Source: a bacterium (lineage in GTDB: Bacteria > Babelota > Babeliae > Babelales > UBA12409). Taken from it: DNA of 64,000 bases. The stretch covers positions 5,489-69,488 of the forward strand of contig JAKANL010000005.1 of assembly GCA_021823685.1 (NCBI GenBank), written 5' to 3'. The position numbers and the translations under genes are program-made. Shown here one piece after another: positions 29,350 through 45,977 of the stretch (position 1 is the first letter of the stretch; every line of letters starts with the position of its first letter). A model generated the notes under the pieces. It saw only the letters and a list, made by a program, of their open reading frames with translations. It was not told the origin of the DNA and searched no databases.

Positions 29350-31791
29350 ATGGCTTATAACCCGCAAGAAATTGAAAAAAAATGGCAAAAACACTGGCAA
29401 ACCGAACCAGATGCCGTCACGCTTCCTGATCACACAAAAACCAAATTTTATTGTTTAGACATGTTTCCCTATCCATCAGGCGCGGGAATTCATATGGGGC
29501 ACGTCAAAAATTATGTTTTTTCGGATATGTATGCCCGTTGCAAATGGCTGCAGGGATATAATGTTCTTCACCCCATGGGCTGGGACGCCTTCGGATTACC
29601 GGCAGAAAACGCCGCTATCAAACAGGGTGTCCACCCACAAAAAAGCACACAACAAAGTATTGCGACGTTTACCAAGCAACTCAAAAGCCTTGGTCTTTTT
29701 TACGACTGGACCAAAGAAATAAATACCACGGATCCGGAATATTATAAGTGGACACAGTGGATTTTTTTGAAAATGTATAACGCCGATTTGGCCTATTGTG
29801 CCAATAAGCCAATCAACTGGTGCCCTTCATGCAAGACCGGCCTGGCCAATGAAGAAGTAGTTAACGGCGGCTGCGAACGCTGCGGCACGAAAGTGGAACA
29901 AAAACAAATTCCACAATGGGTGCTCAAAATTACCCAATATGCGCAAAAATTAATTGATGGGTTAGAAGAGCTTGATTGGTCGGATAAAGTTAAGCAAATG
30001 CAGCGTAATTGGATTGGCAAAAGTGAAGGCACGCTGGTTACTTTTACGGCTAAAGATCATCACGGCAAACCACTTAATATTGAAATATTTACTACGCGCC
30101 CGGATACCCTTTTTGGCGTGACCTATCTCGTGGTAGCGCCCGATGCGCCTATTGTCCAAGATATTATTGCGCCACAACACGTTGATGCCGTCCGCGCATA
30201 TCAAGAACACGTCAAAAAAATGTCGCCTTTCGAGCGCCAGCTTGACCGCGAAAAAACCGGCGTTTTTACCGGCACCTACGCGCAACATCCGATCACCGGC
30301 AAAGATATTCCGGTATGGCTTGCCAGCTACGTCTTAAGCGATTATGGCACCGGAGCGGTTATGGCCGTCCCTGCGCACGATACCCGTGATTTTGAATTTG
30401 CACAAAAATATGGTTTACCCGTTATACAAGTCATTGAAAGCCCGGAAGCTGCGCACGACGCCTCGGGGAAATTAACCGCTGCCTATGAAGGCGATGGGAT
30501 ACTCATTAATAGCGGACAATTTAATGGCGTCGAGTGCACAAAAGCTACTGCAGAAATCACCAAGTTACTCGCTAGCAAACGCATGGGCAATCATCACGTG
30601 CAATATAAACTGCGCGATTGGATTTTTTCGCGCCAGCGTTACTGGGGTGAGCCAATTCCGCTGATTCATTGCCCAACATGCGGTACTGTTCCCGTCCCGG
30701 AAAAAGATTTACCGGTGTTATTGCCCGATGTTGAACGGTATGAACCGACCGGCACGGGTCAATCGCCGCTTGCTGCTATTGATTCATGGGTAAATGTGTC
30801 CTGCCCACGCTGCAAAGGGCCGGCCAAACGCGAAACGAACACAATGCCACAATGGGCCGGTTCATGCTGGTATTTCTTGCGTTATCCAAATCCAGGGCTC
30901 AAAGACCGCGCATTTGATGTTGAAGACATGAGTTATTGGATGCCGGTCGATTTATATATTGGCGGCATCGAACACGCAATTTTGCACTTACTCTACGCGC
31001 GTTTTTACATCAAAGTATTGGCAGATTTGGGATATCTTTCATTTAACGAGCCATTCAAAAAACTTTATAACCAGGGCATGATCCTAAAATACTCAGAAAA
31101 GAGCGGCCAAGTTGAAAAGATGTCGAAATCCAAAGGTAATGTCGTCAACCCTGATGATATTGCCGCCGCCTACGGCGTTGATGCGCTTCGTTTATACATT
31201 ATGTTTATGGGCCCCGTTGAAATGGATTGCGAGTGGCAAGAAAACGGCCTTGAAGGCATGAAGCGTTTCCTCAATCGTTTGTGGACATATCTGACCACCC
31301 AAGGAACTATTTTAGCCGATAACGCCTCTGAAGATGCACAAGTTTCAGCGCGTATCCAGTTATTCTTAATCGAATTTCAAGATCGCGTTGCTCAATTCAA
31401 ACCCAATACTGCCATTTCAGCCATGATGGAATTGCTTAACGATTTAATGGCGCGTCAAGCTAAGATCAGCAGAAAAAGCGTAGAAAGCATGCTCGTTTCA
31501 CTTTCGATCATTGCACCGCATATTGCCAGCGAATTGCTCGAGCAATTATTACATAAAAAGCTTCGCGATTGTTCCTGGCCCGTTGGAGATAAAAGCGCCC
31601 TTCAAGCGCAGCCAGTAGTTATAGCCATTCAGATTAATGGCAAGACGCGCTGCACCATATCAGTGGCTCAGGGAACGGATAAAAAAACAATCGAAAACCA
31701 AGCACACATTGCAGCCAAAAAATGGCTCGCGCAGGCAATGATTAAAAAAGTTATTTTTGTCCCCGATCGATTAATTAATTTTGTGGTGTAA
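29350..31791 (+). CDS. leuS: Leucyl-tRNA synthetase
   Basis: 813 aa. HIGH-type GIHMGHVKNY, KMSKS (EKMSKSKGN), and a CP1 editing domain with TTRPDTLFGVTYLVVAP. Confidence 0.97.
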   Translation: MAYNPQEIEKKWQKHWQTEPDAVTLPDHTKTKFYCLDMFPYPSGAGIHMGHVKNYVFSDMYARCKWLQGYNVLHPMGWDAFGLPAENAAIKQGVHPQKSTQQSIATFTKQLKSLGLFYDWTKEINTTDPEYYKWTQWIFLKMYNADLAYCANKPINWCPSCKTGLANEEVVNGGCERCGTKVEQKQIPQWVLKITQYAQKLIDGLEELDWSDKVKQMQRNWIGKSEGTLVTFTAKDHHGKPLNIEIFTTRPDTLFGVTYLVVAPDAPIVQDIIAPQHVDAVRAYQEHVKKMSPFERQLDREKTGVFTGTYAQHPITGKDIPVWLASYVLSDYGTGAVMAVPAHDTRDFEFAQKYGLPVIQVIESPEAAHDASGKLTAAYEGDGILINSGQFNGVECTKATAEITKLLASKRMGNHHVQYKLRDWIFSRQRYWGEPIPLIHCPTCGTVPVPEKDLPVLLPDVERYEPTGTGQSPLAAIDSWVNVSCPRCKGPAKRETNTMPQWAGSCWYFLRYPNPGLKDRAFDVEDMSYWMPVDLYIGGIEHAILHLLYARFYIKVLADLGYLSFNEPFKKLYNQGMILKYSEKSGQVEKMSKSKGNVVNPDDIAAAYGVDALRLYIMFMGPVEMDCEWQENGLEGMKRFLNRLWTYLTTQGTILADNASEDAQVSARIQLFLIEFQDRVAQFKPNTAISAMMELLNDLMARQAKISRKSVESMLVSLSIIAPHIASELLEQLLHKKLRDCSWPVGDKSALQAQPVVIAIQINGKTRCTISVAQGTDKKTIENQAHIAAKKWLAQAMIKKVIFVPDRLINFVV

Positions 31792-31808: not shown

Positions 31809-31847
31809 AAAAAGCGTCGCCATTTGGAATGGCGACGCTTTTTATTT
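31809..31847. terminator. Bidirectional intrinsic terminator
   Basis: AAAAAGCGTCGCCATT-TGG-AATGGCGACGCTTTTT lies between leuS(+) and the convergent gene 31847..33013(-). Confidence 0.8.
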
Positions 31848-33013
31848 TATGTGGCAGAATCCCCTTCGGAAACTGGTGATGGTGAACGAGCCGACCGCCC
31901 AAGCGCACCCTCGGGTAAACTCAAGTGCCATGTATCGGTAATCTCGGTCAAAAGCGCAGGGGCTACTGAGCGAATCGCGCAACTAAAATCACCCCAAAAA
32001 GCTTTGAGCGCAGCACGCTGAGTAAACCAATCGCTGGAGCCCACGGCGCGCCGTTGCGGCGTCGCATACACTTTGAATTTTTTAAGCGGATCAGCAGCAA
32101 GATCAGCAAGTGCGTCATACTGGTGTTCACCAAAGGCATTAAGCAATTGCTTGAGCTCGATAATTTTATCTTTCTGGTCAGGAAGTTTACCAATAAATTC
32201 TTTGCACGAGGCCAAAACTTCAGCACTATTTTCGGGTATTTTTTGATCGGCAGAATCAAGAATTTTGCTAATCACATAGACACGTGTACCCATTAACTTG
32301 ATCGTGCTCATAAATCGCTCAACAAGCACCCCATGTTGGATCTGCATTAATTGTGCCTGCATTGCCGCAACGCCTCTTGAGCACGCTTCTGCTTCTTCAG
32401 TTTGCGCACCAGCCGGATTTTGAACGATAGAAAGCGTACGCGATACTGCACCCCTCAGCGCATCGAGATCCTCACCGGCTGATTCGGACTTTTCCTCGGC
32501 TTTTGTTGTTACACTATCAGTCTGTATAAATTCATCCTGAAAGGCACGCATCGCAGGTGCCTCTGATTCCACAAGACCATCTGTCTGCGTACTTTTTTCT
32601 TGGCAATCAGCAGCCGATCGCTCAATAGAGAAAAGAGCATCCTGAGTCTGCGCACCAACTGATCTTCTTTCGCGCGTCTCAGCCGACGTTCGCATTCGTG
32701 GCGCCAAAAACAACCGCTGCAAGCGATCAAGTTCTGCGCGCTGCGATACCAGCGACTTTAATGCGTCCAACTCACCGGCAAGTTGCCACCAACTCCGATA
32801 TCTCCGCGACTCCGGCTGAAGGGAGGTGATAAGTGGTTGCGCCAAATCTTTTTTGCGCGCAGCAAAACCGACATGCAGTAATACGTTAATGCGCAGTTTT
32901 TCGGATAAAAATGTTTGTTGATTGTGAAGAACTTCACGTTTTTGTGCTGCAAAAAGAGAACCGATCGTCAATGATATCATCAGTACAAGATACCCAAACG
33001 TACGTTTGACCAT
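31847..33013 (-). CDS. Hypothetical secreted protein
   Basis: 388 aa with the signal peptide MVKRTFGYLVLMISLTIGSLFA|AQ. I recognise no family. The last approximately 40 codons lie in GC-rich, repeat-related sequence. Confidence 0.55.
   Translation of the reverse strand: MVKRTFGYLVLMISLTIGSLFAAQKREVLHNQQTFLSEKLRINVLLHVGFAARKKDLAQPLITSLQPESRRYRSWWQLAGELDALKSLVSQRAELDRLQRLFLAPRMRTSAETRERRSVGAQTQDALFSIERSAADCQEKSTQTDGLVESEAPAMRAFQDEFIQTDSVTTKAEEKSESAGEDLDALRGAVSRTLSIVQNPAGAQTEEAEACSRGVAAMQAQLMQIQHGVLVERFMSTIKLMGTRVYVISKILDSADQKIPENSAEVLASCKEFIGKLPDQKDKIIELKQLLNAFGEHQYDALADLAADPLKKFKVYATPQRRAVGSSDWFTQRAALKAFWGDFSCAIRSVAPALLTEITDTWHLSLPEGALGRSARSPSPVSEGDSAT
31855..31980. repeat. GC-rich repeat-related segment, copy C (weak)
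   Basis: ACCCTCGGGTAAACTCAAGTGCCATG resembles ACCCTTCGGTAAACTCAGGATGCATG at 38904-38929. By eye it is richer in GC than the flanks. Confidence 0.3.
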
Positions 33014-33038
33014 CGCGATTTAAATCCCCTGGTTGTTT

Positions 33039-34934
33039 TTAGCCCGGCAAGTAACCCGTCGCAACGCTAGCCGCTGAAGCAAGACCGCGAGCCAATTCTG
33101 CTGTTCTGGCTGCCGTTGACGCGCTTATCATGGGCGATTCAGGTGCGGTAACTTTCTCGGCAAGCATGCCCGTAAGTTTTGTCACGGCAGAAGGATCTTC
33201 CTGCGCCAACTGCTTAAACATAAGCCCAGCGATATCGGCTTCCGGCTGACTGGATGAGATTACCATTTTTGGCTCTGCAGCACCAGCTGGACTTGAAACG
33301 ATCGGTTCAAAAGATTCCTGAAAAGCCGTTGTCGGCTCACCAATAGAAAGTTCTATGGGGCCACGTACCGGTGCAACCGGTACATCCGTCGATTCGGCTG
33401 CCAAGCGCTCGCGCGCCTCTCTAGGATTAAACCATTCAAACATCGTTGAAAGCTTGTTGATGACGCGCTGGGTAACGCCCGCTTCTGGGGCCTTTTGTGC
33501 AGGTCTGGCTTGTGCGGGGAAAACAGCTGGGCCGGGAAGTTCAGCGTGCACAGTTGGACGTGTAAGATCGGTAATTTTTTGATTTAGCCCCTCGATAGCG
33601 CTTTTTTGCGCGCGAACAACGCTGGAAAGCTGCCCAATACGTACTTTGTCGGTTATGTTGGATGGGCGCTGCACAGCAGCAAGTTTCTGTTGAATGAGCC
33701 CGGGTTTTACAAACATCTCTTCTATTCTTGCGCGCATGGCAGATTGCCGTAAATTGCTCATCTCTTTATTTTTTGCGGTGACCGCTGCTTCAAGTTTGGC
33801 GCGATCACTTTCAATTTTAGCGGCAGCTTGCCGTTGATCAGCGAGCACCTTATCGGCATCTGCCAAACGCTGATCTTTGGTGCGCATCTCAGCAGTTACT
33901 TTATCGATTTCCTGCTCGTGGCGCTTAACGGCGATCTCGAGTTCTTCGGCGCGCTTTTGGGCGATATCACGCTCTTGAGCCGCTTTTGCAGCCTGCACGG
34001 TATCGAGCCGGTGCTGTTCTTGCGCCCTCGCCGCCGCATCCGTTATTTCTTTTTCATGGATTTCTTTTTGGGTAACAGCCTCTTGCTCATGACGTTTAAC
34101 GGCCGTCTCGAGTTCTTCAGCGCGCTTTTGGGCAATATCACGCTCTTGGGCCGCTTTTGCGGCCTGCGCGGTATCGAGCCGGTGCTGTTCTTGCGCCCTC
34201 GCCGCCGCATCAGTTATTTCTTTTTCATGGATTTCTTTTTGAGCAACAGCCTCTTGCTCATGACGTTTAACGGCCGTCTCGAGTTCTTCAGCGCGCCTTT
34301 GGGCAATATCACGCTCTTGGGCCGCTTTTGCAGCCTGCACGGTATCGAGCCGGTGCTGTTCTTGCGCCTTCGCCGCCGCATCAGTTGTTTCTTTTTCATG
34401 GATTTCTTTTTGGGTAACAGCCTCTTGCTCATGACGCTTAATGGCCGTATCGAGTACCTCAGCGCGCTTTTGGACAACAGCACGATCTTGGACAATTTGT
34501 TCTAAACGCTCTTTTAGATGCGCTGATTCTTGCGCGGTTTTGCTCATGGCATTTTTTGCTTCCTGGCAGCCTGTGCGTTCAGTCACAAGCAGCTTCTTAA
34601 TCGATTGAGCCCGTTGGCGCAAAAGCTCCATGTTGCTATTGTACGAAAATTGTTGCGATCTAATCCGCTTGGCAAGCGCATCCATCTCGCGCTGAATATT
34701 TTTACGCATGGAAACAGCCCCTTTGCCAAAACGATCCCCAAGCTTTCTACGCACACTCCCATGGATCACCTCAGGCTGAAGCTTGCCAAGCGCTAAAAGA
34801 CGCTCAACATCACTGCGCGCACTACGATAGGCATCGACGGCATCACCTGCCATCAAACCCGGTACGGAACAAAGGATAAAAAAGATACTGCGATATAATC
34901 GTGAAATAACCACCATTTCCCCTTTCAGGTCCAT
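33039..34934 (-). CDS. Secreted coiled-coil protein with 57-aa tandem repeats
   Basis: 631 aa with the signal-like segment SIFFILCSVPGLMA|GD. A long heptad-rich, charged region contains about 3.3 copies of RAEELETAVKRHEQEAV.QKEIHEKEITDAAARAQEQHRLDT.QAAKAAQERDIAQK. Confidence 0.8.
   Translation of the reverse strand: MDLKGEMVVISRLYRSIFFILCSVPGLMAGDAVDAYRSARSDVERLLALGKLQPEVIHGSVRRKLGDRFGKGAVSMRKNIQREMDALAKRIRSQQFSYNSNMELLRQRAQSIKKLLVTERTGCQEAKNAMSKTAQESAHLKERLEQIVQDRAVVQKRAEVLDTAIKRHEQEAVTQKEIHEKETTDAAAKAQEQHRLDTVQAAKAAQERDIAQRRAEELETAVKRHEQEAVAQKEIHEKEITDAAARAQEQHRLDTAQAAKAAQERDIAQKRAEELETAVKRHEQEAVTQKEIHEKEITDAAARAQEQHRLDTVQAAKAAQERDIAQKRAEELEIAVKRHEQEIDKVTAEMRTKDQRLADADKVLADQRQAAAKIESDRAKLEAAVTAKNKEMSNLRQSAMRARIEEMFVKPGLIQQKLAAVQRPSNITDKVRIGQLSSVVRAQKSAIEGLNQKITDLTRPTVHAELPGPAVFPAQARPAQKAPEAGVTQRVINKLSTMFEWFNPREARERLAAESTDVPVAPVRGPIELSIGEPTTAFQESFEPIVSSPAGAAEPKMVISSSQPEADIAGLMFKQLAQEDPSAVTKLTGMLAEKVTAPESPMISASTAARTAELARGLASAASVATGYLPG
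33936..34448. repeat. Tandem repeat, 171 bp x 3 full copies (plus partial copies on both sides), in-frame coding
   Basis: The unit start CTCGAGTTCTTC recurs at 33936, 34107 and 34278. The units differ at only a handful of positions. Confidence 0.9.
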
Positions 34935-35046
34935 TTATTACAGTATACGCCAAATACCCACAAAGGTCAAGGAAAAATGCTAATTGAAAATTAGATGCCG
35001 AGCGCCAACCGAAGCGTAATTAAGACGGATTGCTCTCAGAAAGCAC

Positions 35047-35083
35047 AAAAAAGAGGGGCCTCGCTTCCAGGCCCCTCTTTTTT
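35047..35083. terminator. Intrinsic terminator hairpin
   Basis: AAAAAAGAGGGGCC-loop-GGCCCCTCTTTTTT lies between 33039..34934 and 35099..36661, both on the minus strand. Confidence 0.75.
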
Positions 35084-35098
35084 AAACAAGCTACAAAT

Positions 35099-36661
35099 TT
35101 AAATAGAAACACCCAGCTTAATCCAGGCGAGCCAACGGTTAGTTACCGTATTTGCATGTCCTGATTCATACGAACCACCGATACTGATAAATGTTGGATA
35201 TTCAATATCTTTCCAGGCATATGACAATGCACCATAAATAATCTGCGACATACAGCCAGGATATGCTGCTGAATTTTCTTCGATATCGTCATTGGTGATA
35301 GCAATATACGTTGGAACTTTTGCGCCCTGCGTTTGGATATCAGGATTACCCAATGGGAAGTTATCAATATCAAAAACAGGAGAATTTGGTTTGGCAAGAC
35401 TACGCGTATACGGCGTATTGACTCCGTTAGCCCACGCAGCCATCGCCGGAATACCTACGCGCTTGCTGCACTTGCCACATAAACAAATATCTTCGGCGTG
35501 GCGCATGAGCAAATTGGCACCACCTTCAGCGCTAAAACCACCCTCGTTGTAACGCAATGCAATGTTAATATCAATATTGTAGTGTGGATGCACTTCAACG
35601 CACATCGTCGTGTAGTTGATCAAGTAATCGAGATAGTCTGAGTTGCCTATAACTGCGTCATCTGCGGTCCAATCGGGCAGGAGCGCATCGGTTTTATAGC
35701 AAACCATGTAACGACTCCACGGTTTACCCTTTAAATCAAATGAACGTTTTTGCTTGTTTGGCACAAGATAGCGCAAAACCGACTCGCACAAGCACGTAAC
35801 CGTACGCCCTTTTTTATCGTTCAACAATTCTAATTCGTTGTTGGAACCAAAAAGAAGCTCAACGTGCCCATTGTTGCCCAAAATTGGTTCAAATAAATAA
35901 CGCGAACATGGTTTATTGCCGGTTGGAATTGTAATACCTACAAACCATCCGTGTAGACACTCTTCACTTTTATGCACGTCATAACCGAAGCGAGCCTCAA
36001 CTTGCGGAACCCCGGTTTTACGCAGACATCTATTCGTCATACGGCCGTAGCAACGCTTGGTATTGCAATCGCCCATGGCGCTGATAAACGAACCAAACGC
36101 ACCATCAGGCACATTGCCATTACCGGCATGAAGAGGGGTCTCGCACATATTTAAGCGATTTTCGATACGAACGACGGGTAGCGAGATATCAAACCAAAAA
36201 TTGCGCGGCAAGCGTTGGAAGTAAGAAAAGCCAACGCCAAACGATCGCTGCTTAGGGCAAAAACGAACGCGGCTGGCATAGCTGAGTGGTGTCAGATTAT
36301 CGATATCAACGGGAGCCGTCTGAATACCCAGGTTGTAAGCATTGATATCAACCGGTTGGACAAACGATGAGGTTGGAGCGTCGTCTTCAGCAACGATAAT
36401 TTCGTAACCTTCATTGGGCAAGAAATACTTTGCAATTTTGTTTGCCTGTGTGGTTTCACCGCCAAAAACGGTGGCCTGCAATGATGCTCCGTGGCCATCC
36501 TCACGCACACTACGAAAATCTCTGAAGATTGATATCAGTTCAGGCCGTTCTACTTTATAGAGTGGTGGTATTGGTAAAAATGTAAGTCCATAAACGTCGG
36601 CAAAGAGCCGTGCCGCCGGCATTGAGATTAAAAGAACAAGCAGTAGCTTTCGCGCCATCAT
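35099..36661 (-). CDS. Cysteine-rich putative outer-membrane beta-barrel protein / porin
   Basis: ATG at 36661 (AAGGA RBS; the track start at 36688 is TTG). Signal peptide MMARKLLLVLLISMPAARLFA|DV. It has many alternating-polarity strands (FGVGFSYFQ, WFDISLPVV, EARFGYDV, INIALRYN, ISIGGSYE) and ends in an amphipathic strand, WLAWIKLGVSI. I count about 15 Cys. Confidence 0.5.
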   Translation of the reverse strand: MMARKLLLVLLISMPAARLFADVYGLTFLPIPPLYKVERPELISIFRDFRSVREDGHGASLQATVFGGETTQANKIAKYFLPNEGYEIIVAEDDAPTSSFVQPVDINAYNLGIQTAPVDIDNLTPLSYASRVRFCPKQRSFGVGFSYFQRLPRNFWFDISLPVVRIENRLNMCETPLHAGNGNVPDGAFGSFISAMGDCNTKRCYGRMTNRCLRKTGVPQVEARFGYDVHKSEECLHGWFVGITIPTGNKPCSRYLFEPILGNNGHVELLFGSNNELELLNDKKGRTVTCLCESVLRYLVPNKQKRSFDLKGKPWSRYMVCYKTDALLPDWTADDAVIGNSDYLDYLINYTTMCVEVHPHYNIDINIALRYNEGGFSAEGGANLLMRHAEDICLCGKCSKRVGIPAMAAWANGVNTPYTRSLAKPNSPVFDIDNFPLGNPDIQTQGAKVPTYIAITNDDIEENSAAYPGCMSQIIYGALSYAWKDIEYPTFISIGGSYESGHANTVTNRWLAWIKLGVSI

Positions 36662-36737
36662 AATTATCCTTTCTTGATTGGCCAACAAAAAACCTACTCC
36701 TGTTCTACTACACTGAACAATGTAATGTAAACAAAAA

Positions 36738-36765
36738 GAAGAGGCAGTTTTTTAACTGCCTCTTC
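36738..36765. terminator. Intrinsic terminator hairpin
   Basis: GAAGAGGCAGTT-TTTT-AACTGCCTCTTC lies just downstream of the gene 36785..38437(-). Confidence 0.7.
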
Positions 36766-36784
36766 AAGAATAATCTAAAAAGAG

Positions 36785-38437
36785 TTATTTCGCAGATGCT
36801 GGTTGTGCTGGTTTAGAAGCTTCAGAAGTTGGAGTTTTTGATCCACGCAACCAACCGAACCAACGACGAGCCTCCGGTTGCGCTTGAGGTGCTACCGGCG
36901 TTGCTACAACAGGTTTTGGTTGTTGAACTACCGGAGTTACTGCTTGTGGCGTTGTTTCTGGTTTTGCTACTGGACTAACATTTTTTGACCAACGAAGCCA
37001 GTTAAACCAACCACCAACGGCTGCTTGCGCTTGAGGCGCTACCGGTGTTGTTACAGCAGGTTTCGCTTCTGGTTGCACGGCATAGAGCTCTTGCAATTCT
37101 TGAGTGAGACCTTCCAAGCTAGCAAAGATTCTTTGCGAAGGAAGCGTCACTTTTTGTTCGACCAACTTACCATTGGCATCTTTTGCAAATACCTTGTTAC
37201 CATTGGCATCTCTAGCCGATACCTTGATAGCATCATACTGCTTTTCGCCATTTTCAGCCTTCTTCAGGTTGACCTTGAGGCCCGGTTCATAAACCATAAC
37301 ATCGGCATAGTCATCAACGAGCTCATTGAGTTTAGCAACAAGCCGGGCATTGTTGGCCATGAGAGTCGCATTGAGACGTTGCGATTCGGAAAGACGAGCA
37401 TTAACTTGTTCAACCTGATCATGGTTGGTACGTTGCAATTCAGCGAGACGAACGTTAGCCTGATCAAGCTGATTATGCAATGCACGGTCGCCGTTTTCTA
37501 AGCAAACGCCGCGATGCATGGCACGGCTAAACGAATCGTTAACATTTTGCAATTCAGCATTTTTAGCGTTCAACTCTTGAACTTTAGCATTCAACAAGCG
37601 GTCTTTTTCGCTGACGCTATTGGTCAACGCAGCCACTTGTTGCTCAGCATTCTGCAATTCGGCGGTTTTTACGTCCAATTCTTGAACTTTGGCATTCAGC
37701 AAGCCGTCTTTTTCGCTGACGCTATTGGTCAACGCAACCACTTGCCGTTCAGTATTCTGCAATTCGACGTTTTTCGCGTCCAATTCTTGAACTTTGGCAT
37801 TCAGCAAGCCGTCTTTTTCGCTGACGCTATTGGTCAACGCAGCCACTTGCCGCTCAGTATTCTGCAATTCGGCGTTTTTAGTGTCCAATTCTTGAACTTT
37901 AGCATTCAACGAGCAGTCTTTTTCGCTAACGTTATCGGTCAGCGTAGCCACTTGCCGCTCACTATTTTGCAATTCAGCGTCCTTTGCGCTCAACTCTTGG
38001 CCTTTAACGACCATGGCTCGGTTAACTTCAGCTAATTTGGCATTTTTGGCCGTCAATTCTTGCGTCTTGGCAACCAAAGCCTTATCAAATTTAGCCAACT
38101 CGGCCTTCTTGTGTTCATTTACTTTGCGCACGATAGCACCAACGCCACGTACACCCTTGAAAGAAAGGCCCTTCACGCGCTTATCTGACGATTTCTTCAA
38201 AGAGGCAAGCGTAGCTTGTAACTTTGAAACGGCACCTTCAAGCCCAGAAATATTTTTTTGAGCTATCAACGCCTTCACTTGCGCATTAAATTGCCCAATA
38301 GTCTTGGCAATTTGATCTACCTTTTTCACTTGTTTTGCTGGAGCTGGTTTTTTGACCGGCTTAACCGCTTTAGGTTGTGCCGCCGACAAACCAAATCCGC
38401 TCAACAAAAGAACAGGCAATAATATCTTCTTGTACAT
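36785..38437 (-). CDS. Secreted coiled-coil protein with 35-aa tandem repeats and a duplicated C-terminal WFxWLRxSK motif
   Basis: ATG at 38437 is preceded by GGAGG (the track start at 38485 is further upstream). Signal peptide MYKKILLPVLLLSGFGLSA|AQP. There are about 4.5 copies of NAKVQELD.KNAELQNTERQVAALTNSVSEKDGLL. Confidence 0.8.
   Translation of the reverse strand: MYKKILLPVLLLSGFGLSAAQPKAVKPVKKPAPAKQVKKVDQIAKTIGQFNAQVKALIAQKNISGLEGAVSKLQATLASLKKSSDKRVKGLSFKGVRGVGAIVRKVNEHKKAELAKFDKALVAKTQELTAKNAKLAEVNRAMVVKGQELSAKDAELQNSERQVATLTDNVSEKDCSLNAKVQELDTKNAELQNTERQVAALTNSVSEKDGLLNAKVQELDAKNVELQNTERQVVALTNSVSEKDGLLNAKVQELDVKTAELQNAEQQVAALTNSVSEKDRLLNAKVQELNAKNAELQNVNDSFSRAMHRGVCLENGDRALHNQLDQANVRLAELQRTNHDQVEQVNARLSESQRLNATLMANNARLVAKLNELVDDYADVMVYEPGLKVNLKKAENGEKQYDAIKVSARDANGNKVFAKDANGKLVEQKVTLPSQRIFASLEGLTQELQELYAVQPEAKPAVTTPVAPQAQAAVGGWFNWLRWSKNVSPVAKPETTPQAVTPVVQQPKPVVATPVAPQAQPEARRWFGWLRGSKTPTSEASKPAQPASAK
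37546..38010. repeat. Tandem repeat, 105 bp x about 4.5 copies, in-frame coding
   Basis: The (T)TGCAATTC phase marker recurs with its TGC ending at 37550, 37655, 37760, 37865 and 37970, an exact 105-bp period. Confidence 0.9.
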
Positions 38438-38619
38438 AAGAAACCTCCAGTTTGTACAATTAAACTTCGGAAACTTAAACCGCATTACTTTACCCCCCCA
38501 AAAGGGAGGCTTTTCACGCCTATTTAAAGGTTCCTGCCATTACAATATACAGAATATACTAATTAAAAAAAATTGCAAGTTTATTTTAACTGAAAATAAT
38601 TTTCCAACGAGAGGAAGTA

Positions 38620-39100
38620 TTCCTGCGCCAGATGGTTTTTGGGGAAATGCGGCCCCAAATAGCGCTGCCATTCGGCGCATCCGACCGCAACCTAAGGCAC
38701 CAGCGCCCCGTGGGCAGGCAGGACAAGCGAAAGTAAGATTGAGAGCCGGCAGGTAGGAATTTAGACTGCCCCCTTCGACAAGCTCCCGCCGCCGCCACGG
38801 CTATGGCGCCAGCCAGGCGTAGCTTAGCATTTCTTCGAAGAAATACCTGCGTAAGCGAAGACTGGCGCGCAGGCAGGGAGAGCGGGGGAAATTTAGCCTG
38901 TGTACCCTTCGGTAAACTCAGGATGCATGGGAAATAAGAGATTTTCGTAGGAAATGGTGGAGCGCTAGGCGTACGGAATATAACCATCACACAAACCGCT
39001 CACCATGGGCCATATCCCGCTCATTCTGCCCGATACCGTCCCCGCTCATTCTGAGCTTGTCGAAGAATGTCGTGCCCCGGCATGCGGGCCGTAGAAAACA
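38620..39100. repeat. Composite GC-rich repeat region, copy D, filling an intergenic gap
   Basis: It contains the 57-nt hairpin unit (38804-38860, inverted relative to 2798-2854). A 13-nt perfect inverted repeat is CTTCGACAAGCTC (38773-38785) paired with GAGCTTGTCGAAG (39053-39065). The direct repeat CCCGCTCATTCTG occurs at 39016 and 39041. ORFs predicted here read as low-complexity word salad (LSLPKG, AKLRLAG). Confidence 0.7.
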
Positions 39101-39102
39101 CC

Positions 39103-41181
39103 CTAATCAGCCAAACCGAACTGTTTTAAAAGGGCATCAACGGTAGGTTTGCGCCCCAAAAACCGCTCAAGCAACAATTCCGGATCAACAGCCCCGCCCT
39201 TGCCCAAAACTTGGTCAACAAACTTCTTGCCAACGGCTGGATTGATCAACCCCTGCTCTTTGATGGCCGAAAAGAGGTCCAAAGCAAACACCTTCGACCA
39301 TAAATAACTGTAATATTTGGCGGCATAGCCCGTCAGATGCCCAAAATTGGCCGGCAGATGCACGGCGTCATCCCAGGCGATATAAGGCTCATCGACCGAC
39401 CGCATGATATCGACATATACCCGCTGAATATCCTTCTTACCCTCAGCATGGAGCCGCAACGAAAGCAGCGTCTTGCCCAGTTGATCAAGCATAAACAAGC
39501 CCGCATCAAAACGGTCAATAGCGCCCAATGTCGCAATCATATCGTCGGACAACGGTTGACCGCTACGATAGTGCTTGGAAAGCTTTTTAAGAATACCCGG
39601 CTCTTTAACCCACTGCTCAAACATCTGAGAAGGCATTTCGACAAAATCACGCTTGACGCTTGTGCCAGAAAAACTAAACATGCGTGTCGCCCCAACCATA
39701 CCATGCATGGCATGGCCGAATTCGTGGAAAAACGTTTCCACATCGGCAAATTTGAGCAAGCCCGGCCTATCCGTCGTTGCGTGCGGAAAATTGGCAATAA
39801 TGGCAATAACAGCCGGACAAAGCACGTCACCCTCTTTTTGTGCTGATACCACATCAATCATACAGGCATGCGAATACTTGTTGGGGCGGGGGTATAAATC
39901 AAATAATAAATAACCGCGCAGGCGCCCCGCATCGGTATCGTAAACGGCAAAACAATACACAGATTCATGCCATAAGCCCGCACAGGTAACGCGCTCAAAG
40001 CGCAACCCTAAAAATTGCTGATAGATCGCACAAATAGCGTCGATAACGTGATCAACCGGAAAATACTCTGAAAGCAACTGGTCGTTAAGCTGCAAATGCT
40101 TTTGTTTGTAGTACTCTTTGACGTATGCAACATCCCACGGCTGTAAAACACCATCAGCGGCCAACGTAATGCCCTGCGGTAAATCGCCCAGCCACGCGTT
40201 GAATTCTTGGGCGCGCTTACGCTCTAATTTGGGCCGCAGTTCGCCTAAAAACGCCTCAACGGCCTGCGGTTGCTTGGCCATTTCGCTATCTAAATCGTAG
40301 GAGGCAAAATCAGGAAAACCAAGCATCTTTGCTTTTTGGTCACGCAACGTAATAATCTCATCAAGCAGCTTGTAATTTGCGGGATACGCACGATTATTAA
40401 ATGCTTCATGCACACGCTTGCGCGTTTGGCTATTGCGCGCGAATTTGATCACGGTTTTGGCCGTGGGATAATCCATCGTAACCAAAAAGTTACCCTGCCC
40501 GTCTTTTGCCAAATGCTCTAGAACGCTGGCCGGCACACCTTCAAGCTCGGCCTCCGAACAGGCAACACGCGTAGCATCCGAAGAAATATTTTTATCAAAT
40601 TGCAGCGAAAGCTCGCTTATTTTGTTGGTTAACGCAATAACCGCAGCAAGCCGATCATCGGGTAATAGCATACCATTGCGCTTGAAATCGCGCATGAGTT
40701 CCTGGTTAAAATACTGCTGCTCATCATCGAGCACTTCAGTTTTACTGTTACCATCGATGTACGTCTGAATGGCCTTAAAAAGATCTTTATTTTGGAGCAC
40801 GTGCTTTTGCACAAAGGGGTTAAGCTCGAGTAATGCATCAAAACAGGCCTGACGAACTGCCGCATCCGGACTTACTTCATTAAGCACCTCAAGCGGCGCC
40901 ATCAGGCGCTTGGCCGTACGTAAAAGCGTGTCATACGCCTGCATAGTATTAGCAAATGTGCGGCTTTCAGCGGAAATATCCAGTATCGTTTGAGTATCAT
41001 CCAGTATTTTTGTTTTAAGCACAGCAGTGCGCGTTTCCACCTGCTTCACCGTTGATGGAAAAAGCGTAACAACATCGGCAATATCGGCTATGGAACACAC
41101 AAAAATATCCTTCGGTTGATTGTTTTTGATACACGAACAAGAACAGAACAAAAAACTGATAACCACACAAAACTTTTTCAT
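39103..41181 (-). CDS. M3-family zinc metallopeptidase (oligopeptidase A / thimet-like), possibly a lipoprotein
   Basis: It has the HEFGH zinc motif (FFHEFGHAMHG), the downstream EMPSQMFEQW, and the N-terminus MKKFCVVISFLFCSCSC. ATG at 41181. Confidence 0.88.
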   Translation of the reverse strand: MKKFCVVISFLFCSCSCIKNNQPKDIFVCSIADIADVVTLFPSTVKQVETRTAVLKTKILDDTQTILDISAESRTFANTMQAYDTLLRTAKRLMAPLEVLNEVSPDAAVRQACFDALLELNPFVQKHVLQNKDLFKAIQTYIDGNSKTEVLDDEQQYFNQELMRDFKRNGMLLPDDRLAAVIALTNKISELSLQFDKNISSDATRVACSEAELEGVPASVLEHLAKDGQGNFLVTMDYPTAKTVIKFARNSQTRKRVHEAFNNRAYPANYKLLDEIITLRDQKAKMLGFPDFASYDLDSEMAKQPQAVEAFLGELRPKLERKRAQEFNAWLGDLPQGITLAADGVLQPWDVAYVKEYYKQKHLQLNDQLLSEYFPVDHVIDAICAIYQQFLGLRFERVTCAGLWHESVYCFAVYDTDAGRLRGYLLFDLYPRPNKYSHACMIDVVSAQKEGDVLCPAVIAIIANFPHATTDRPGLLKFADVETFFHEFGHAMHGMVGATRMFSFSGTSVKRDFVEMPSQMFEQWVKEPGILKKLSKHYRSGQPLSDDMIATLGAIDRFDAGLFMLDQLGKTLLSLRLHAEGKKDIQRVYVDIMRSVDEPYIAWDDAVHLPANFGHLTGYAAKYYSYLWSKVFALDLFSAIKEQGLINPAVGKKFVDQVLGKGGAVDPELLLERFLGRKPTVDALLKQFGLAD

Positions 41182-41262
41182 ATACAAAACTCCAAAATCT
41201 CGCCTTGTATATCGTAATCGCAACAATAGTTTTTGTAAAAAAATGGCGCGAAAACCGATGGA

Positions 41263-43218
41263 TTAATCCGTAGATTTTAATATCTGCAGTTCATTGCGTA
41301 GTTTAATCGCCAATTCAAAATCAAGATTTTCTGCAGCCTGGCGCATATTTTGCTCAAGCTCGACCATGCGTTTAATGCGCGCATTTTTATCCAGGCGCGT
41401 ACTGCGGCTGCCATGTTTTTTGTACGCTTTAGCGGCTGCAAGCGGTGAGCCGGTGATACTTTTAACGACTTCGCGGGTAACGGTGCGCGGTTGAATCCCG
41501 TGATCTTTGTTATAGGCTAGCTGCAAGTTACGCCGACGCGCTGTTTCATCCATAGCAACACGCATCGATTCGGTAATCTTATCGGCATACAAAAGCACTT
41601 TGGCCTCGCTATTGCGCGCAGCACGGCCGATCGTTTGTATTAATGAGCGGCGATCGCGCAAAAAACCTTCAATATCGGCGTCCATGATCGCCACGAGCGC
41701 AACCTCGGGCAGATCAAGGCCTTCGCGCAATAAGTTTACGCCGACCAAACAATCAAAAACGCCCAAACGCAATTTTTGCAAAATATCAGTTCGTTCTGGT
41801 GTTTTAATCTCGCTGTGCAGATAACACACTTTAATCTGGTTATTTTCAAGATGATCGGCCAATTCTTCGGCCATCTGCTTGGTCAAAACAGTTACTAAAC
41901 AGCGAAAGCCTCGCTTGGCCGTCTGACGAATATGCTCAATTAAATCGTTCACCTGGTTCACCCGGCTGCGCACCTCAACAACTGGATCAACCAATCCGGT
42001 TGGACGAATAACTTGTTCGACAACGCCTTGGCTCTGCGCAAGCTCATATTGGCCAGGGGTGGCTGATACAAAAATAACGTCACGCAAATACTTTTCAATT
42101 TCATCAAACTTGAGCGGACGGTTATCCAAAGCCGAAGGCAATCTAAAACCAAAATCAATCAGCGATTGTTTGCGTGAGCGATCGCCTGAATACATACCAC
42201 CAAGCTGCGGGACAGCAATATGCGATTCATCGATGATGCACAAAAAATCTTCCGGAAAAAAGTCAAATAAACAAAATGGCGCTTGTCCGCCGGCACGGCC
42301 GTCAAAGTGGCTGGAATAATTTTCGATGCCATTACAATAGCCATATTGCTCCAAAAGCTCTAAATCGTGCGCAACCCGGCGCCCAATACGATCTTGATAA
42401 AGCGGATTAGCCATTTTGGGCAACCACTCATTAAGTTCACGCTTAATGCTCATAATCGCTGAATTCTTTTTATCTTGCGTAGTTACAAAGTGTTTGGCAG
42501 GAAAAACAATCGTATGATCAACGCTCTCGATAACGGTATTATGCTGGCGATCGACCCAGGCCATATGTTCAATCGTATTGCCAAAAAACTCTATGCGCAG
42601 CTTATGCGCGGCGTAGGGCGCCTGGATTTCAACAGTATTACCCACAACCTGAAACGTTCCCGATGCTCGTTGGACATCGTTACGTTCGTATTGGATAAAA
42701 ATCAATTTGTGTAACAAATCGTTACGAGAAATCTTGTCACCAATATTAATCGGCAGCGCTAACTCACGATAAGCGGTTGGGTCACCCAACGAATAAATAC
42801 ACGAAACAGAAGCAATCATAATCACATCACGGCGGTTCATTAACGATGCCGTTGCTTCAACGCGCAAACGCTCAATCTCGCGGTTTACTTTGGTTTCCTT
42901 GGGAATATAAATATCCTGTGCCGGCAGGTACGATTCAGGCTGGTAAAAATCGTAATAGCTCACAAAATAACAAACTTTATTGTGCGGAAAGAATTGGTAA
43001 AACTCTTCGTATAACTGCGCGGCAAGCGTTTTATTAGGCGATAAAATAAGCACGGGCCGATCTTGCCCAGCAATCACATTAGCTAACGTAAACGTCTTGC
43101 CCGAACCGGTCACACCCATGAGCGTTGAGCGCCCGGGACGCTGGTCAGAGAGCTGGGCAATAGCGCCCGGCTGACTGCCAGCAGGCTGATACGGTGAAAC
43201 AAGTTTAAATAACGACAC
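41263..43218 (-). CDS. uvrB: Excinuclease ABC subunit B
   Basis: Walker A GVTGSGKTF, helicase motifs (DESH, TVLTKQMAEEL) and a C-terminal UVR domain. I prefer the GTG at 43218 (AAGGGGG RBS), which gives MSLFKLVSPYQPAGSQP, like E. coli MSKPFKLNSAFKPSGDQP. Confidence 0.95.
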   Translation of the reverse strand: MSLFKLVSPYQPAGSQPGAIAQLSDQRPGRSTLMGVTGSGKTFTLANVIAGQDRPVLILSPNKTLAAQLYEEFYQFFPHNKVCYFVSYYDFYQPESYLPAQDIYIPKETKVNREIERLRVEATASLMNRRDVIMIASVSCIYSLGDPTAYRELALPINIGDKISRNDLLHKLIFIQYERNDVQRASGTFQVVGNTVEIQAPYAAHKLRIEFFGNTIEHMAWVDRQHNTVIESVDHTIVFPAKHFVTTQDKKNSAIMSIKRELNEWLPKMANPLYQDRIGRRVAHDLELLEQYGYCNGIENYSSHFDGRAGGQAPFCLFDFFPEDFLCIIDESHIAVPQLGGMYSGDRSRKQSLIDFGFRLPSALDNRPLKFDEIEKYLRDVIFVSATPGQYELAQSQGVVEQVIRPTGLVDPVVEVRSRVNQVNDLIEHIRQTAKRGFRCLVTVLTKQMAEELADHLENNQIKVCYLHSEIKTPERTDILQKLRLGVFDCLVGVNLLREGLDLPEVALVAIMDADIEGFLRDRRSLIQTIGRAARNSEAKVLLYADKITESMRVAMDETARRRNLQLAYNKDHGIQPRTVTREVVKSITGSPLAAAKAYKKHGSRSTRLDKNARIKRMVELEQNMRQAAENLDFELAIKLRNELQILKSTD

Positions 43219-43385
43219 GTTTTTAACCCCCTTGGCAAGAACCAATCGCGCAATCGCAATATATGAACGGGCGAATACCAGTTCTTTTATTAGAGTATCA
43301 CAAATGGCTTATTTTGGCCAAAAAACCAGACTTTTGAGGTAAGCTTTAGAAGAACGCCAAAAGTTTTTAAAAGCAGGTAAAAAAT

Positions 43386-43806: not shown

Positions 43807-44451
43807 TTACTTAACTTTTGAAAGCAACGTCATTAATTCGCAGATCTGCGCTTCACTGAGCACGTTAACCACATTTGGATCAGCCAAAACATCTTTGCAT
43901 AGGCTATATGGATTAGAGGTTGCAACCACGCGGCTTAATGGCGTTTGGTTAAACCAACGAGCTAATTTAAGCAACCCGTAAGATGAACCGCCAAACACAG
44001 CACCCCTGAGCACATCGTACGGCAAAATGTACTTTGCAAAATTGGTTAAGTGAAGTTGGCCGGGAAGGAATGCGCCGCTCGTCAAGGACGAAACTTTTGC
44101 ATCATATGCACCTTTCAAGTAAGACGCATATCCTTCGTCCAATGCATTATGTGCAATGTAGACAGTGCACAAAGCAGCGCCTGCAGCGCACACCATTGCA
44201 GCTAGCGCGGCTTTTTTAAAACGAGGACGCTCCGCTTCAGCCAATTTGATAGCTAAACCAAAGTCGGAAGCGTTAGCAAAAGAACGACCGCCTGATAAAA
44301 CAGCCGGATGGCTGGCGACAAATGCACGAGCAAAATCAGCACAGTTTTGTGCGTTAATTTTAACAACATCCGCTCGCAGCGGCGCAAGCATCGCCACCAC
44401 AGCCAGCAATCCAAAGAAACACGACTTACGTACCATGAAAATCCCTTTCAC
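43807..44451 (-). CDS. Small secreted protein, array member 1
   Basis: 214 aa. Signal peptide FFGLLAVVAMLAPLRA|DV, N-terminal NCADFARAF motif, internal hydrophobic segments, and a C-terminal SLCKDVLADPNVVNVL motif. Confidence 0.6.
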   Translation of the reverse strand: MKGIFMVRKSCFFGLLAVVAMLAPLRADVVKINAQNCADFARAFVASHPAVLSGGRSFANASDFGLAIKLAEAERPRFKKAALAAMVCAAGAALCTVYIAHNALDEGYASYLKGAYDAKVSSLTSGAFLPGQLHLTNFAKYILPYDVLRGAVFGGSSYGLLKLARWFNQTPLSRVVATSNPYSLCKDVLADPNVVNVLSEAQICELMTLLSKVK

Positions 44452-44572
44452 TAAAAATTAACTCATTGCAGTATATGATGCCCTAATACCAAAAAATGTC
44501 TATCAAAAAGTAGGATTTTTGCCCGAAGTTAGGCGCATTTACACGTTCCGGCGTATTTTTTCGTTGGCAATA

Positions 44573-45277
44573 TCACAAAAACTTGGCAGCCAAAATCAAT
44601 ACGCCGGCACCGATTGCCAAATAATTCGGCTTGCGCGGCCATATACCGCTCCTGGCAATTCCAAGAACATTTATTCCATACCCTACCTCAATAAACGGCA
44701 TTTCTTGCGCCCATTTTACCCGCTTGGCAGCAGCCCACGCGCGCAATTCATCGAGAACCCGCGCATCAAAAAGTCCGGCCAACTCCGGGCAAACAAGCAC
44801 GCGTTCAACCAACAAAAAATCGTCAAAATTTTTCAGCGCCTGACGCACCATGATACGATCACTACGCTTGCCCTTCCCCGCGCGCAAAGCGCAACCAGAA
44901 GCCCGTTGCACCAAAAAACGTAACACCTCTCCCAAACAAGAAAAATCATCTTTGTTCTTTTCAATGGCTTCTTGACTTTTTGCAAGAGCTTCTAAATCTC
45001 CAGCAAGCGTTTTTTGAGCTTCTTCAAGACCTTTTCGTTCATCACCCAATGCCGAACAGCCTTTCCAGGCAAAAATGGCCATCACGGCATATGCAAGCGC
45101 TCCCTTCCAAGCCATTTGATAATCGGCATCTTCTTTGGCATAAATCTGCTTAATCTTTTTTGAAAGTTCTGCCGCGCGTGCTGATAAAAAATCAGCGCTA
45201 CACGATGGCGCAACTTTTTGCATGGCCAGGCAGCTACTCGTTACCACCAAAGAAGCAAAAAAAACGAGACAACGCAT
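44573..45277 (-). CDS. Small secreted/membrane protein, array member 2
   Basis: ATG at 45277 (the track start at 45304 is TTG). Signal peptide MRCLVFFASLVVTSSCLA|MQ, SCSADFLSARA motif, LVCPELAGLFDARVL motif, and a C-terminal TM segment, YLAIGAGVLILAAKFL. Confidence 0.6.
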   Translation of the reverse strand: MRCLVFFASLVVTSSCLAMQKVAPSCSADFLSARAAELSKKIKQIYAKEDADYQMAWKGALAYAVMAIFAWKGCSALGDERKGLEEAQKTLAGDLEALAKSQEAIEKNKDDFSCLGEVLRFLVQRASGCALRAGKGKRSDRIMVRQALKNFDDFLLVERVLVCPELAGLFDARVLDELRAWAAAKRVKWAQEMPFIEVGYGINVLGIARSGIWPRKPNYLAIGAGVLILAAKFL

Positions 45278-45290
45278 ATTAAAATTTTCT

Positions 45291-45977
45291 TTAAGAAGGC
45301 TCAACCGTTAACCCAGCAACGGCACACATACCATCAAGTACGGCATCACCGGGCATGGCAGCTTGGCACCACGTATCAATTAAGACCGGATTATCCAATA
45401 ATAACTGTTTTAAACATACCGGGCACAACCCTTTCCCAACGCGCTTGCCCGTTTGATAATCGGTTGCCTTAATTCCAAGACGCCAAGAACTGTACCCCAG
45501 GGCCGTTGCAGCGCACAGACGGGAGAATGCGCCACTCCGCCGAGCGAAGAAATTAAACATGCCTGAAGCGCCAAATTTGACCGCATAAATTGCACAAAAC
45601 GCGGCCGCCGGCAGATATAAATAGCGTTTTTCTTGTTCATCCTGCACCGTCTTTGCCAGCACGCTTGCATCATGCAAGCACTGCCCATGATGGGTCGCCT
45701 TGAAATATGGCAAAAGCCCTATTCTGGGAAAGCGCGGCACGGGCGAAACTTTTTGTTCTTGTGGTATGGGTTCTGGCTTGGCCGACTCACGGGCCACGGG
45801 CGCAACAGGTGCCGCTGGAGCTGGGGGCGTCACTTCTTTTTCAGAAACTGGCGGGACTTGTTGAACAACAGGAGCCTGAATAACCACGGATTGAGCAGTG
45901 GCCGGCTCCATCGCCAAACACCGGCATGTACCACTAATACCCAAAATGAACATCGTTATATGTGCACGCGTTGCCAT
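45291..45977 (-). CDS. Small secreted protein, array member 3 (Pro-rich linker)
   Basis: 228 aa. Signal peptide ...FILGISGTCRCLA|MEP, a Pro/Val/Ala-rich spacer, hydrophobic segments, and a C-terminal GLCPVCLKQLLLDNPVL. Confidence 0.6.
   Translation of the reverse strand: MATRAHITMFILGISGTCRCLAMEPATAQSVVIQAPVVQQVPPVSEKEVTPPAPAAPVAPVARESAKPEPIPQEQKVSPVPRFPRIGLLPYFKATHHGQCLHDASVLAKTVQDEQEKRYLYLPAAAFCAIYAVKFGASGMFNFFARRSGAFSRLCAATALGYSSWRLGIKATDYQTGKRVGKGLCPVCLKQLLLDNPVLIDTWCQAAMPGDAVLDGMCAVAGLTVEPS

Follow-up and report, generated by a model that had tools for sequence, protein, structure and literature searches.

We examined a run of four genes, here g1 to g4, on the minus strand of a 64,000-nucleotide (nt) stretch of genomic DNA (GCA_021823685.1, contig JAKANL010000005.1, positions 5,489–69,488 of the forward strand). 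This whole stretch is called the window, and coordinates below are counted within it. The third gene, g3, encodes a predicted outer-membrane beta-barrel, and its neighbors encode apparently exported helical proteins. The named homologs of g3 come from candidate division TM6 or Babeliales, that is, from Dependentiae; the window organism is a member of this phylum (Dependentiae, or TM6) of intracellular protist parasites. An earlier note, written from the sequence alone, had suggested that the locus encodes a surface apparatus, or else secreted coiled-coil effectors. The genes are real open reading frames (ORFs), consecutive on one strand as that note described them and spanning 31847–38485. They are laid out with their transcription signals as follows.

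31847–33013, minus strand: g1, apparently exported all-helical near-orphan protein, 388 amino acids (from the ORF list).
33039–34934, minus strand: g2, apparently exported coiled-coil protein, 631 amino acids; an alternative start is possible at Met7 (34916).
35099–36661, minus strand: g3, predicted 12-stranded outer-membrane beta-barrel, 520 amino acids from the ATG of MMARK at 36661.
36785–38437, minus strand: g4, apparently exported coiled-coil protein, 550 amino acids from the ATG of MYKK at 38437.
36738–36765, minus strand: intrinsic terminator hairpin between g4 and g3, 12-bp stem and T-run (-20.2 kcal/mol, z -5.5).
35046–35084, minus strand: intrinsic terminator hairpin between g3 and g2, 16-bp stem and T-run (-29.7 kcal/mol, z -5.0).
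31809–31843, both directions: bidirectional terminator hairpin common to g1 and the convergent leuS (-27.9 kcal/mol, z -6.6).
34942–34970, minus strand: sigma-70-like promoter, best match TTGACC-17-TATACT, immediately upstream of g2 (10/12 consensus matches; a consensus match only).

The longest ORFs at two of these positions are slightly longer than the genes given: 529 amino acids with a TTG start for g3 (35099–36688) and 566 amino acids for g4 (36785–38485). In both cases the shorter version is likelier, and for g4 it agrees with the end coordinate of the earlier note. The z-scores compare the folding energy of each hairpin with that of shuffled sequence. A strong hairpin terminator had been claimed for every junction; this holds for two of the three, g4/g3 and g3/g2, but not for g2/g1, where the gap is 25 nt and folds at the level of shuffled sequence (z -0.04), with no hairpin. 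Because of this short gap and its lack of a hairpin, g2 and g1 are probably co-transcribed as a single transcription unit.

Signal peptides had been claimed for all four proteins, and n-, h- and c-regions can be discerned in each, judging by eye and with a hydrophobicity heuristic. The N-termini consist of a basic n-region, a hydrophobic core (Kyte-Doolittle mean 2.2–2.7 over 10 residues) and an AxA-like site (LFA/AQ, LMAG/DA, LFA/DV and LSA/AQ among the four). In Chromulinavorax destructans, a Dependentiae isolate, 44% of coding sequences carry signal peptides and the secretome is enriched in ORFans (PMC6561590), and about 20 of the ~55 ORFs of our window look exported by eye. Four exported genes in a row are for these reasons unremarkable, and a run of this kind should turn up many times in any one genome. 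Other genes of the window encode a signal-peptide ankyrin-repeat protein (10227–11537, plus strand), an exported C11 (clostripain-family) peptidase (1223–2488, minus strand) and a BamA with five POTRA domains (59205–61703, plus strand), which are hallmarks of a diderm intracellular protist parasite. Together with an M3 peptidase described below, they match the gene content described for cultured Dependentiae.

No Pfam or NCBIfam match was found for g3. Its homologs form 77 clusters in a collection of 5.8 billion proteins and occupy 36 loci in GTDB representative genomes (searched with a 15-sequence alignment); at least five genomes carry a pair of copies. By this homology, g3 is a member of an unannotated, Dependentiae-wide family. 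Structure prediction, one of the checks that the earlier note had proposed, gave a confident 12-stranded barrel, in agreement with its description of g3 as barrel-like. The AlphaFold model (AF2, from a 70-sequence alignment) has a predicted local distance difference test score (pLDDT) of 92.4 and a predicted template-modeling score (pTM) of 0.89, and its 12 long strands are joined by long loops on one side and tight turns on the other. A conserved 37-residue segment precedes strand 1 (pLDDT 91–95 over residues 21–50), and the C-terminus resembles a beta-signal, the family consensus ending in F. Foldseek against PDB returned FapF as the best match (E 7e-11; template-modeling (TM) score 0.64–0.75 when normalized to the target, only 0.4 when normalized to the query), followed by the COG4313 channel Pput2725 (4rl8; E 2e-7) and then by FadL and autotransporter barrels.

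The sequence relationship to these channels is faint. PF13557, the Pfam model for COG4313, is matched weakly by 3 of 70 members of the g3 family (best E 0.0086), and one member of a distant subset of the family also matches it weakly. g3 itself has no match at E≤1 and lies outside PF13557 by sequence threshold, and the family profile finds no match among PDB sequences. The profile of the distant subset did hit a copper amine oxidase among PDB sequences, which we dismissed as chance. Conservation in the family is highest at the motif PTGNKP (g3 residues 246–251), in which P246, T247, G248, N249 and P251 are each at least 90% conserved over 70 sequences; it directly follows predicted strand 5 (residues 235–246). 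The first PTG of FapF, present also in Pput2725, forms the base of the loop between strands 5 and 6 (PMC5557850), and a role as lateral gate has been considered for it (PMC5557850, PMC4493636). Because of its predicted fold, the Foldseek ranking, the weak PF13557 signal in its family and the PTG motif, we place g3 as a probable divergent, loop-expanded branch of the COG4313/FapF class of plugged 12-stranded channels. The earlier note had matched none of the four proteins to a known family by eye. This stands for g1, g2 and g3 as far as Pfam and NCBIfam are concerned, but the fold and PTG motif of g3 lead to COG4313/FapF.

Of the two comparisons, that with COG4313 channels (PF13557, Phenol_MetA_deg; Pput2725 and SphA) covers the number of strands, the presence of a segment N-terminal to strand 1, the position of the PTG (base of the loop between strands 5 and 6), the stand-alone gene and the faint PF13557 signal in a few family members. 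In channels of this class the N-terminal segment is folded into the barrel lumen (PMC4493636). COG4313 channels are roughly 270–300 amino acids long, whereas g3 with its 520 is about twice that size by way of long extracellular loops, many of them with Cys, and it differs further in the missing PF13557 and PDB sequence matches just given. With FapF (5o65), the secretion pore for functional amyloid of Pseudomonas, g3 has in common a predicted fold of the 12-stranded plugged-barrel class, the PTG motif and apparently Sec-exported neighbors. It differs from FapF in lacking a periplasmic coiled-coil and linker domain, in the separate transcription units, in the absence of fap operon partners beside it (FapA–E, which include amyloid subunits and the C39-type FapD), and in having helical coiled coils rather than amyloid repeats for neighbors.

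g3 contains 15 Cys, 11 of them mapped to the large predicted extracellular loops. Together with the intracellular lifestyle and degenerate envelope of these bacteria (PMC4776705), this brings to mind a disulfide-cross-linked shell like the chlamydial MOMP/OmcB complex, in which the role of g3 would be mainly structural. Against such a shell, Cys number in the family ranges from 2 to 21 with no Cys column conserved family-wide, and Pfam gives no match to chlamydial outer-membrane protein families. The range rules out a chlamydia-like Cys-rich complex as a trait of the g3 family, and we consider a shell of this kind highly improbable for the window organism as well. Calling g3 Cys-rich is correct for the protein itself, but on comparison across the family Cys-richness is a feature of the lineage and not of the family.

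We examined the neighborhood of g3 homologs, and found the same gene order at seven loci from relatives (L001, L004, L006, L008, L010, L011 and L013), whose g3 homologs are 34–55% identical to g3. This order is uvrB, M3 peptidase, a variable part, the g3 homolog, a second variable part, leuS (convergent), a NUDIX-like gene and a phosphodiesterase gene. The genes that delimit the variable island in our window are listed here.

41263–43245: uvrB, next beyond the M3 peptidase.
39103–41226, minus strand: upstream island anchor, exported M3 peptidase (PF01432, E 7e-109).
29350–31791, plus strand: downstream island anchor, leuS, convergent with g1.

The variable parts in these relatives hold 1–7 genes, encoding proteins of 132–1777 amino acids, nearly all of which have signal-peptide-like N-termini and a high content of charged residues. 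Orthology among the island proteins is detectable only in the closest pair, L011 and L013. When g1, g2 and g4 were compared by BLAST with the island proteins from the seven syntenic relatives, no match was significant apart from a weak coiled-coil alignment between g4 and a protein of L001 (E 8e-4). Locally duplicated small exported families lie downstream of the barrel gene in L004 (9750–16499) and L013 (11754–17144), with paralogs such as the 383- and 132-amino acid proteins of L004 (65% identity over the N-terminus) and the 647- and 451-amino acid proteins of L013 (55% identity).

Some resemblance in architecture persists in L001, the nearest relative. There the upstream counterpart, of 441 amino acids, repeats the layout of g4, its signal peptide being followed by a Lys/Pro/Ala-rich stretch and a coiled coil, and the two proteins have an AKLNE(L/M) motif in common. 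In the positional counterpart of g2, of 687 amino acids, the signal peptide and VDAY motif are accompanied, as in g2, by a coiled coil with repeats and an extended C-terminal region. A Cys in the h-region of g2 (FFILC) and of its L001 counterpart (STIGC) makes lipoprotein processing possible. Since strong hairpins also bracket the g3 orthologs of L001 and L008, independent transcription of the barrel gene, as read from these hairpins, is itself conserved.

The slot between uvrB–M3 peptidase and leuS is thus filled in relatives by unrelated exported proteins, an outcome of the synteny check suggested in the earlier note that goes against its four-gene surface apparatus. The barrel gene is stand-alone, terminator-bracketed and phylum-wide, and its neighbors are not conserved. 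In distant Dependentiae, the g3 homolog is found in other contexts, often without such neighbors. Exported coiled-coil neighbors of g3 homologs are still about twice as frequent as background (17/75 vs. 35/363, Fisher p 0.003, from loci that are phylogenetically non-independent).

This neighborhood could reflect FapF-like secretion, in which coiled-coil neighbors, exported unfolded by Sec, would be threaded through the plugged g3 barrel, the island amounting to a channel with its changing cargo. In its favor, FapF leads the structural matches and shares the PTG motif with g3 (PMC5557850), every flanking gene has a signal-peptide-like N-terminus, exported coiled-coil genes lie beside g3 homologs both within the syntenic clade and outside it (at least one further context, L021/L025 and L019), and such neighbors are enriched as given above. 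Other features fit poorly. The g3 protein has ~37 mature residues ahead of strand 1 and no long helix there, and lacks the periplasmic domain, a trimeric coiled coil with linker, on which secretion by FapF depends (PMC5557850); there is no FapD-type peptidase and no amyloid-like substrate; terminators on both sides set g3 apart from any operon; and many g3 homologs are without such neighbors. No N- or C-terminal sorting motif shared among 34 island proteins was found. In addition, 12-stranded barrels all resemble one another, and the query-normalized score of the FapF match is low. We regard secretion of the neighbors through g3 as unlikely.

The two larger neighbors are coiled-coil-like and carry recent repeat expansions, as had been described in part in the earlier note; a crude heptad score covers 0.27 of the length of g2 and 0.30 of that of g4, against ~0 for most ORFs of the window, and Tandem Repeats Finder (TRF) detects in-frame repeats in both.

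37544–37980, minus strand: g4 tandem repeat, 4.2 copies of 105 nt, or 35 amino acids (five heptads); TRF score 662, 89% matches.
33913–34491, minus strand: g2 tandem repeat, 3.4 copies of 171 nt, or 57 amino acids; TRF score 983, 92% matches.

Two plus-strand ORFs (33828–34505, 225 amino acids, and 37514–38035, 173 amino acids) lie exactly over these repeats and were rejected as antisense artefacts, because it is the minus-strand frames that are conserved in a sister strain. From its N-terminus, g4 has the putative signal peptide, a basic Lys/Pro/Ala-rich stretch, a coiled coil with the 35-amino acid repeats and a Pro/Ala/Gln-rich tail with two WF-x-WLR-x-SK motifs. g2 has the putative signal peptide, a VDAY motif, a coiled coil with the 57-amino acid repeats and a well conserved Pro-rich C-terminal region of ~240 amino acids. 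In Pfam and NCBIfam scans, the only matches of g4 were to models of coiled coils (SMC, for example), and these fell far below threshold; g1 and g2 matched no family. The same scans found no YadA-anchor or other anchor domain in g2 or g4, whose sequences also have no LPXTG motif, and no OmpA_C, SLH, Lpp or other peptidoglycan-binding domain in any of g1 to g4.

These proteins are near-orphans. g4 has no homolog at E≤0.001 among 5.8 billion proteins, and the search with g2 returned only itself and a 574-amino acid copy-number variant. That variant, from assembly GCA_027347085.1 (L043, 1265–2989), is without exactly one 57-amino acid unit, and all other genes compared in that assembly are 100% identical to the window; the difference is either a true copy-number polymorphism or a short-read collapse of the repeat. 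g1 falls in two clusters among 1.84 billion representatives, namely itself and a 405-amino acid relative with 52% identity encoded at the corresponding position of the sister strain. A single-sequence AF2 model of g1 was unusable (pLDDT 44.5).

The sister strain (sample SRR22387874, contigs L042 and L045) allowed rates of change to be compared along the locus. Amino acid identity, nonsynonymous substitution rate (dN) and its ratio to the synonymous rate (dN/dS) are given with the window genes as reference.

g3: 97.5% identity, dN 0.012, dN/dS 0.05.
MscK-like channel: 94.7% identity, dN 0.025, dN/dS 0.08.
204-amino acid protein: 94.1% identity, dN 0.027, dN/dS 0.08.
Phosphodiesterase: 92.2% identity, dN 0.038, dN/dS 0.12.
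leuS: 91.6% identity, dN 0.042, dN/dS 0.05.
g2, C-terminal 287 amino acids: 88.5% identity, dN 0.060, dN/dS 0.19.
g2, N-terminal 253 amino acids: 73.9% identity, dN 0.149, dN/dS 0.34.
g1: 51.9% identity, dN 0.374, dN/dS 0.29 (rough, dS being saturated).
g4, C-terminal 223 amino acids: 47.1% identity, dN 0.469, dN/dS 0.29 (rough, dS being saturated).

g3 is the slowest-evolving gene nearby and is under strong purifying selection, and protein-level change in g4, g2 and g1 is 10–40 times faster. With dN/dS of ~0.2–0.3, these three are nonetheless, by this measure, real coding genes. The fast change in g2 is unevenly distributed, its last 240 residues being ~93% identical between the strains. As a separate observation, dS of leuS (29350–31791 vs. 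L045 2148–4622) is 0.92, while dS of g3, the MscK-like channel, the phosphodiesterase and the 204-amino acid protein is 0.27–0.33; this excess may reflect recombination at the edge of the island or close to it.

The contrast in rates bears on another possibility, that g4 and g2 are an envelope scaffold, acting as periplasmic coiled-coil struts in the manner of Lpp or OmpM and linking the outer membrane, or g3 itself, to peptidoglycan. Homologs of Lpp, Pal, OmpA and OmpM were not found in ten Dependentiae genomes (bioRxiv 10.1101/2021.05.31.446380), so that such a tether would fill a vacancy; a basic K/P/A-rich stretch directly follows the signal peptide in g4 and its L001 counterpart, the C-terminal region of g2 is conserved, and the two genes adjoin that of the most conserved outer-membrane protein. 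A structural tether would be expected to be conserved, however, whereas g4 is 47% identical between strains in which g3 is 97.5% identical, and g4 is without a homolog elsewhere. The equivalent upstream proteins range from 242 to 1777 amino acids with variable repeat number, which is unfit for a defined periplasmic spacing, and, as noted, no peptidoglycan-binding domain was detected. A scaffold of this kind seems to us very unlikely. More broadly, we give little credence to the barrel and its changing coiled-coil neighbors being one module at all, be it a FapF-like Sec-dependent route of secretion or display or the missing outer-membrane anchoring system.

The reading that we favor, and hold to be probable though far from assured, is that of a conserved stand-alone outer-membrane channel situated in a hypervariable island of exported proteins, these being probably host-interaction or surface proteins. 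In one Dependentiae clade the island keeps a constant position on the chromosome, between uvrB–M3 peptidase and leuS; it would consist of Sec-exported helical proteins, with g4 upstream and the g2–g1 pair downstream of an independently transcribed g3. The BamA of the window would insert g3, which would act as a plugged channel. By analogy with the role proposed for COG4313 channels, and because the phylum reportedly lacks lipid biosynthesis (PMC4776705), its most likely function would be uptake of host-derived, probably hydrophobic or amphipathic compounds. For g4, g2 and g1 we favor a role as surface-associated or released proteins that would engage host components, repeat gain and loss altering their length, because they are apparently exported, lineage-specific, endowed with expanding repeats and very fast compared with their slow housekeeping neighbors. 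The suggestion that the coiled-coil proteins are secreted or surface proteins as in Legionella and Coxiella is plausible to this extent, since exported, fast-changing near-orphans fit a phylum of parasites.

Known systems offer partial parallels for these proteins. Streptococcal M proteins resemble g2 and g4, as a functional analogy only, in having a signal peptide, a faster-evolving N-terminal coiled coil and variable in-frame repeats, and resemble g2 also in a better-conserved Pro-rich C-terminal part. This M-protein-like combination of variable N-terminal half, repeats and conserved C-terminal part suggests that g2 may be anchored through its C-terminal region. The differences from M proteins are the lack of LPXTG or a wall anchor, the diderm host cell and the absence of sequence similarity. 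Closer to hand, the secretomes of Dependentiae such as Chromulinavorax and Babela likewise contain lineage-specific signal-peptide proteins without known domains, with local duplications. From the ankyrin secretome of the phylum, the island proteins differ in being clustered in a fixed slot around a conserved outer-membrane gene, and in being coiled-coil and repeat proteins rather than ankyrins.

Several points weigh against the favored reading. Sequence does not tell in which direction g3 would transport, COG4313 channels importing and FapF exporting. Babeliales have no lipopolysaccharide genes (PMC4776705), and in a cell without lipopolysaccharide the need for a dedicated channel for hydrophobic uptake is weaker. 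The signal peptides were called only by eye and by heuristic, and the saturated dS of g1 and g4 (1.3–1.6) leaves their dN/dS values rough. The enrichment of coiled-coil neighbors beside g3 homologs may leave room for a functional link.

What is new here is a phylum-wide, unannotated member of the COG4313/FapF class together with a delimited hypervariable exported island, both ordinary in kind and not surprising for an intracellular bacterium, though useful to the small Dependentiae field. Dependentiae are widespread, almost uncultured protist parasites with an envelope described as degenerate. The g3 family provides a concrete candidate for material exchange between these cells and their hosts, and might provide a marker protein when the few cultured strains, such as Noda2021 (AP025250; g3 orthologs in L021 and L034), are studied by proteomics or with antibodies. 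The island shows how exported near-orphans arise and diversify where, at one fixed site, repeats expand and genes are duplicated and replaced, which is raw material for host adaptation.

Several other features of the window were noted. A second run of exported-looking genes lies at 43807–45977 (minus strand), with three consecutive small ORFs (214, 243 and 228 amino acids) that have signal-peptide-like N-termini and no Pfam match; one is partly coiled-coil. Between the stop codon of the M3 peptidase gene and the promoter region of g4, a non-coding stretch (38601–39102) has 56.6% G+C compared with 45.1% for the whole window. No convincing ORF was found in it, nor any match in an Rfam scan. It contains a 13-nt direct repeat (39016–39028 and 39041–39053) and a 13-nt inverted repeat (38773–38785 and 39053–39065). 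It also contains one of two copies of a ~67-nt imperfect hairpin, at 38804–38870; the other, on the opposite strand at 2788–2854, is 89.6% identical. Neither tRNA nor Rfam calls cover the hairpin, which may be a small repeat element or a non-coding RNA. The second copy lies directly 3′ of tRNA-Arg(acg), and the apical stem differs between the two copies by a both-sided change.

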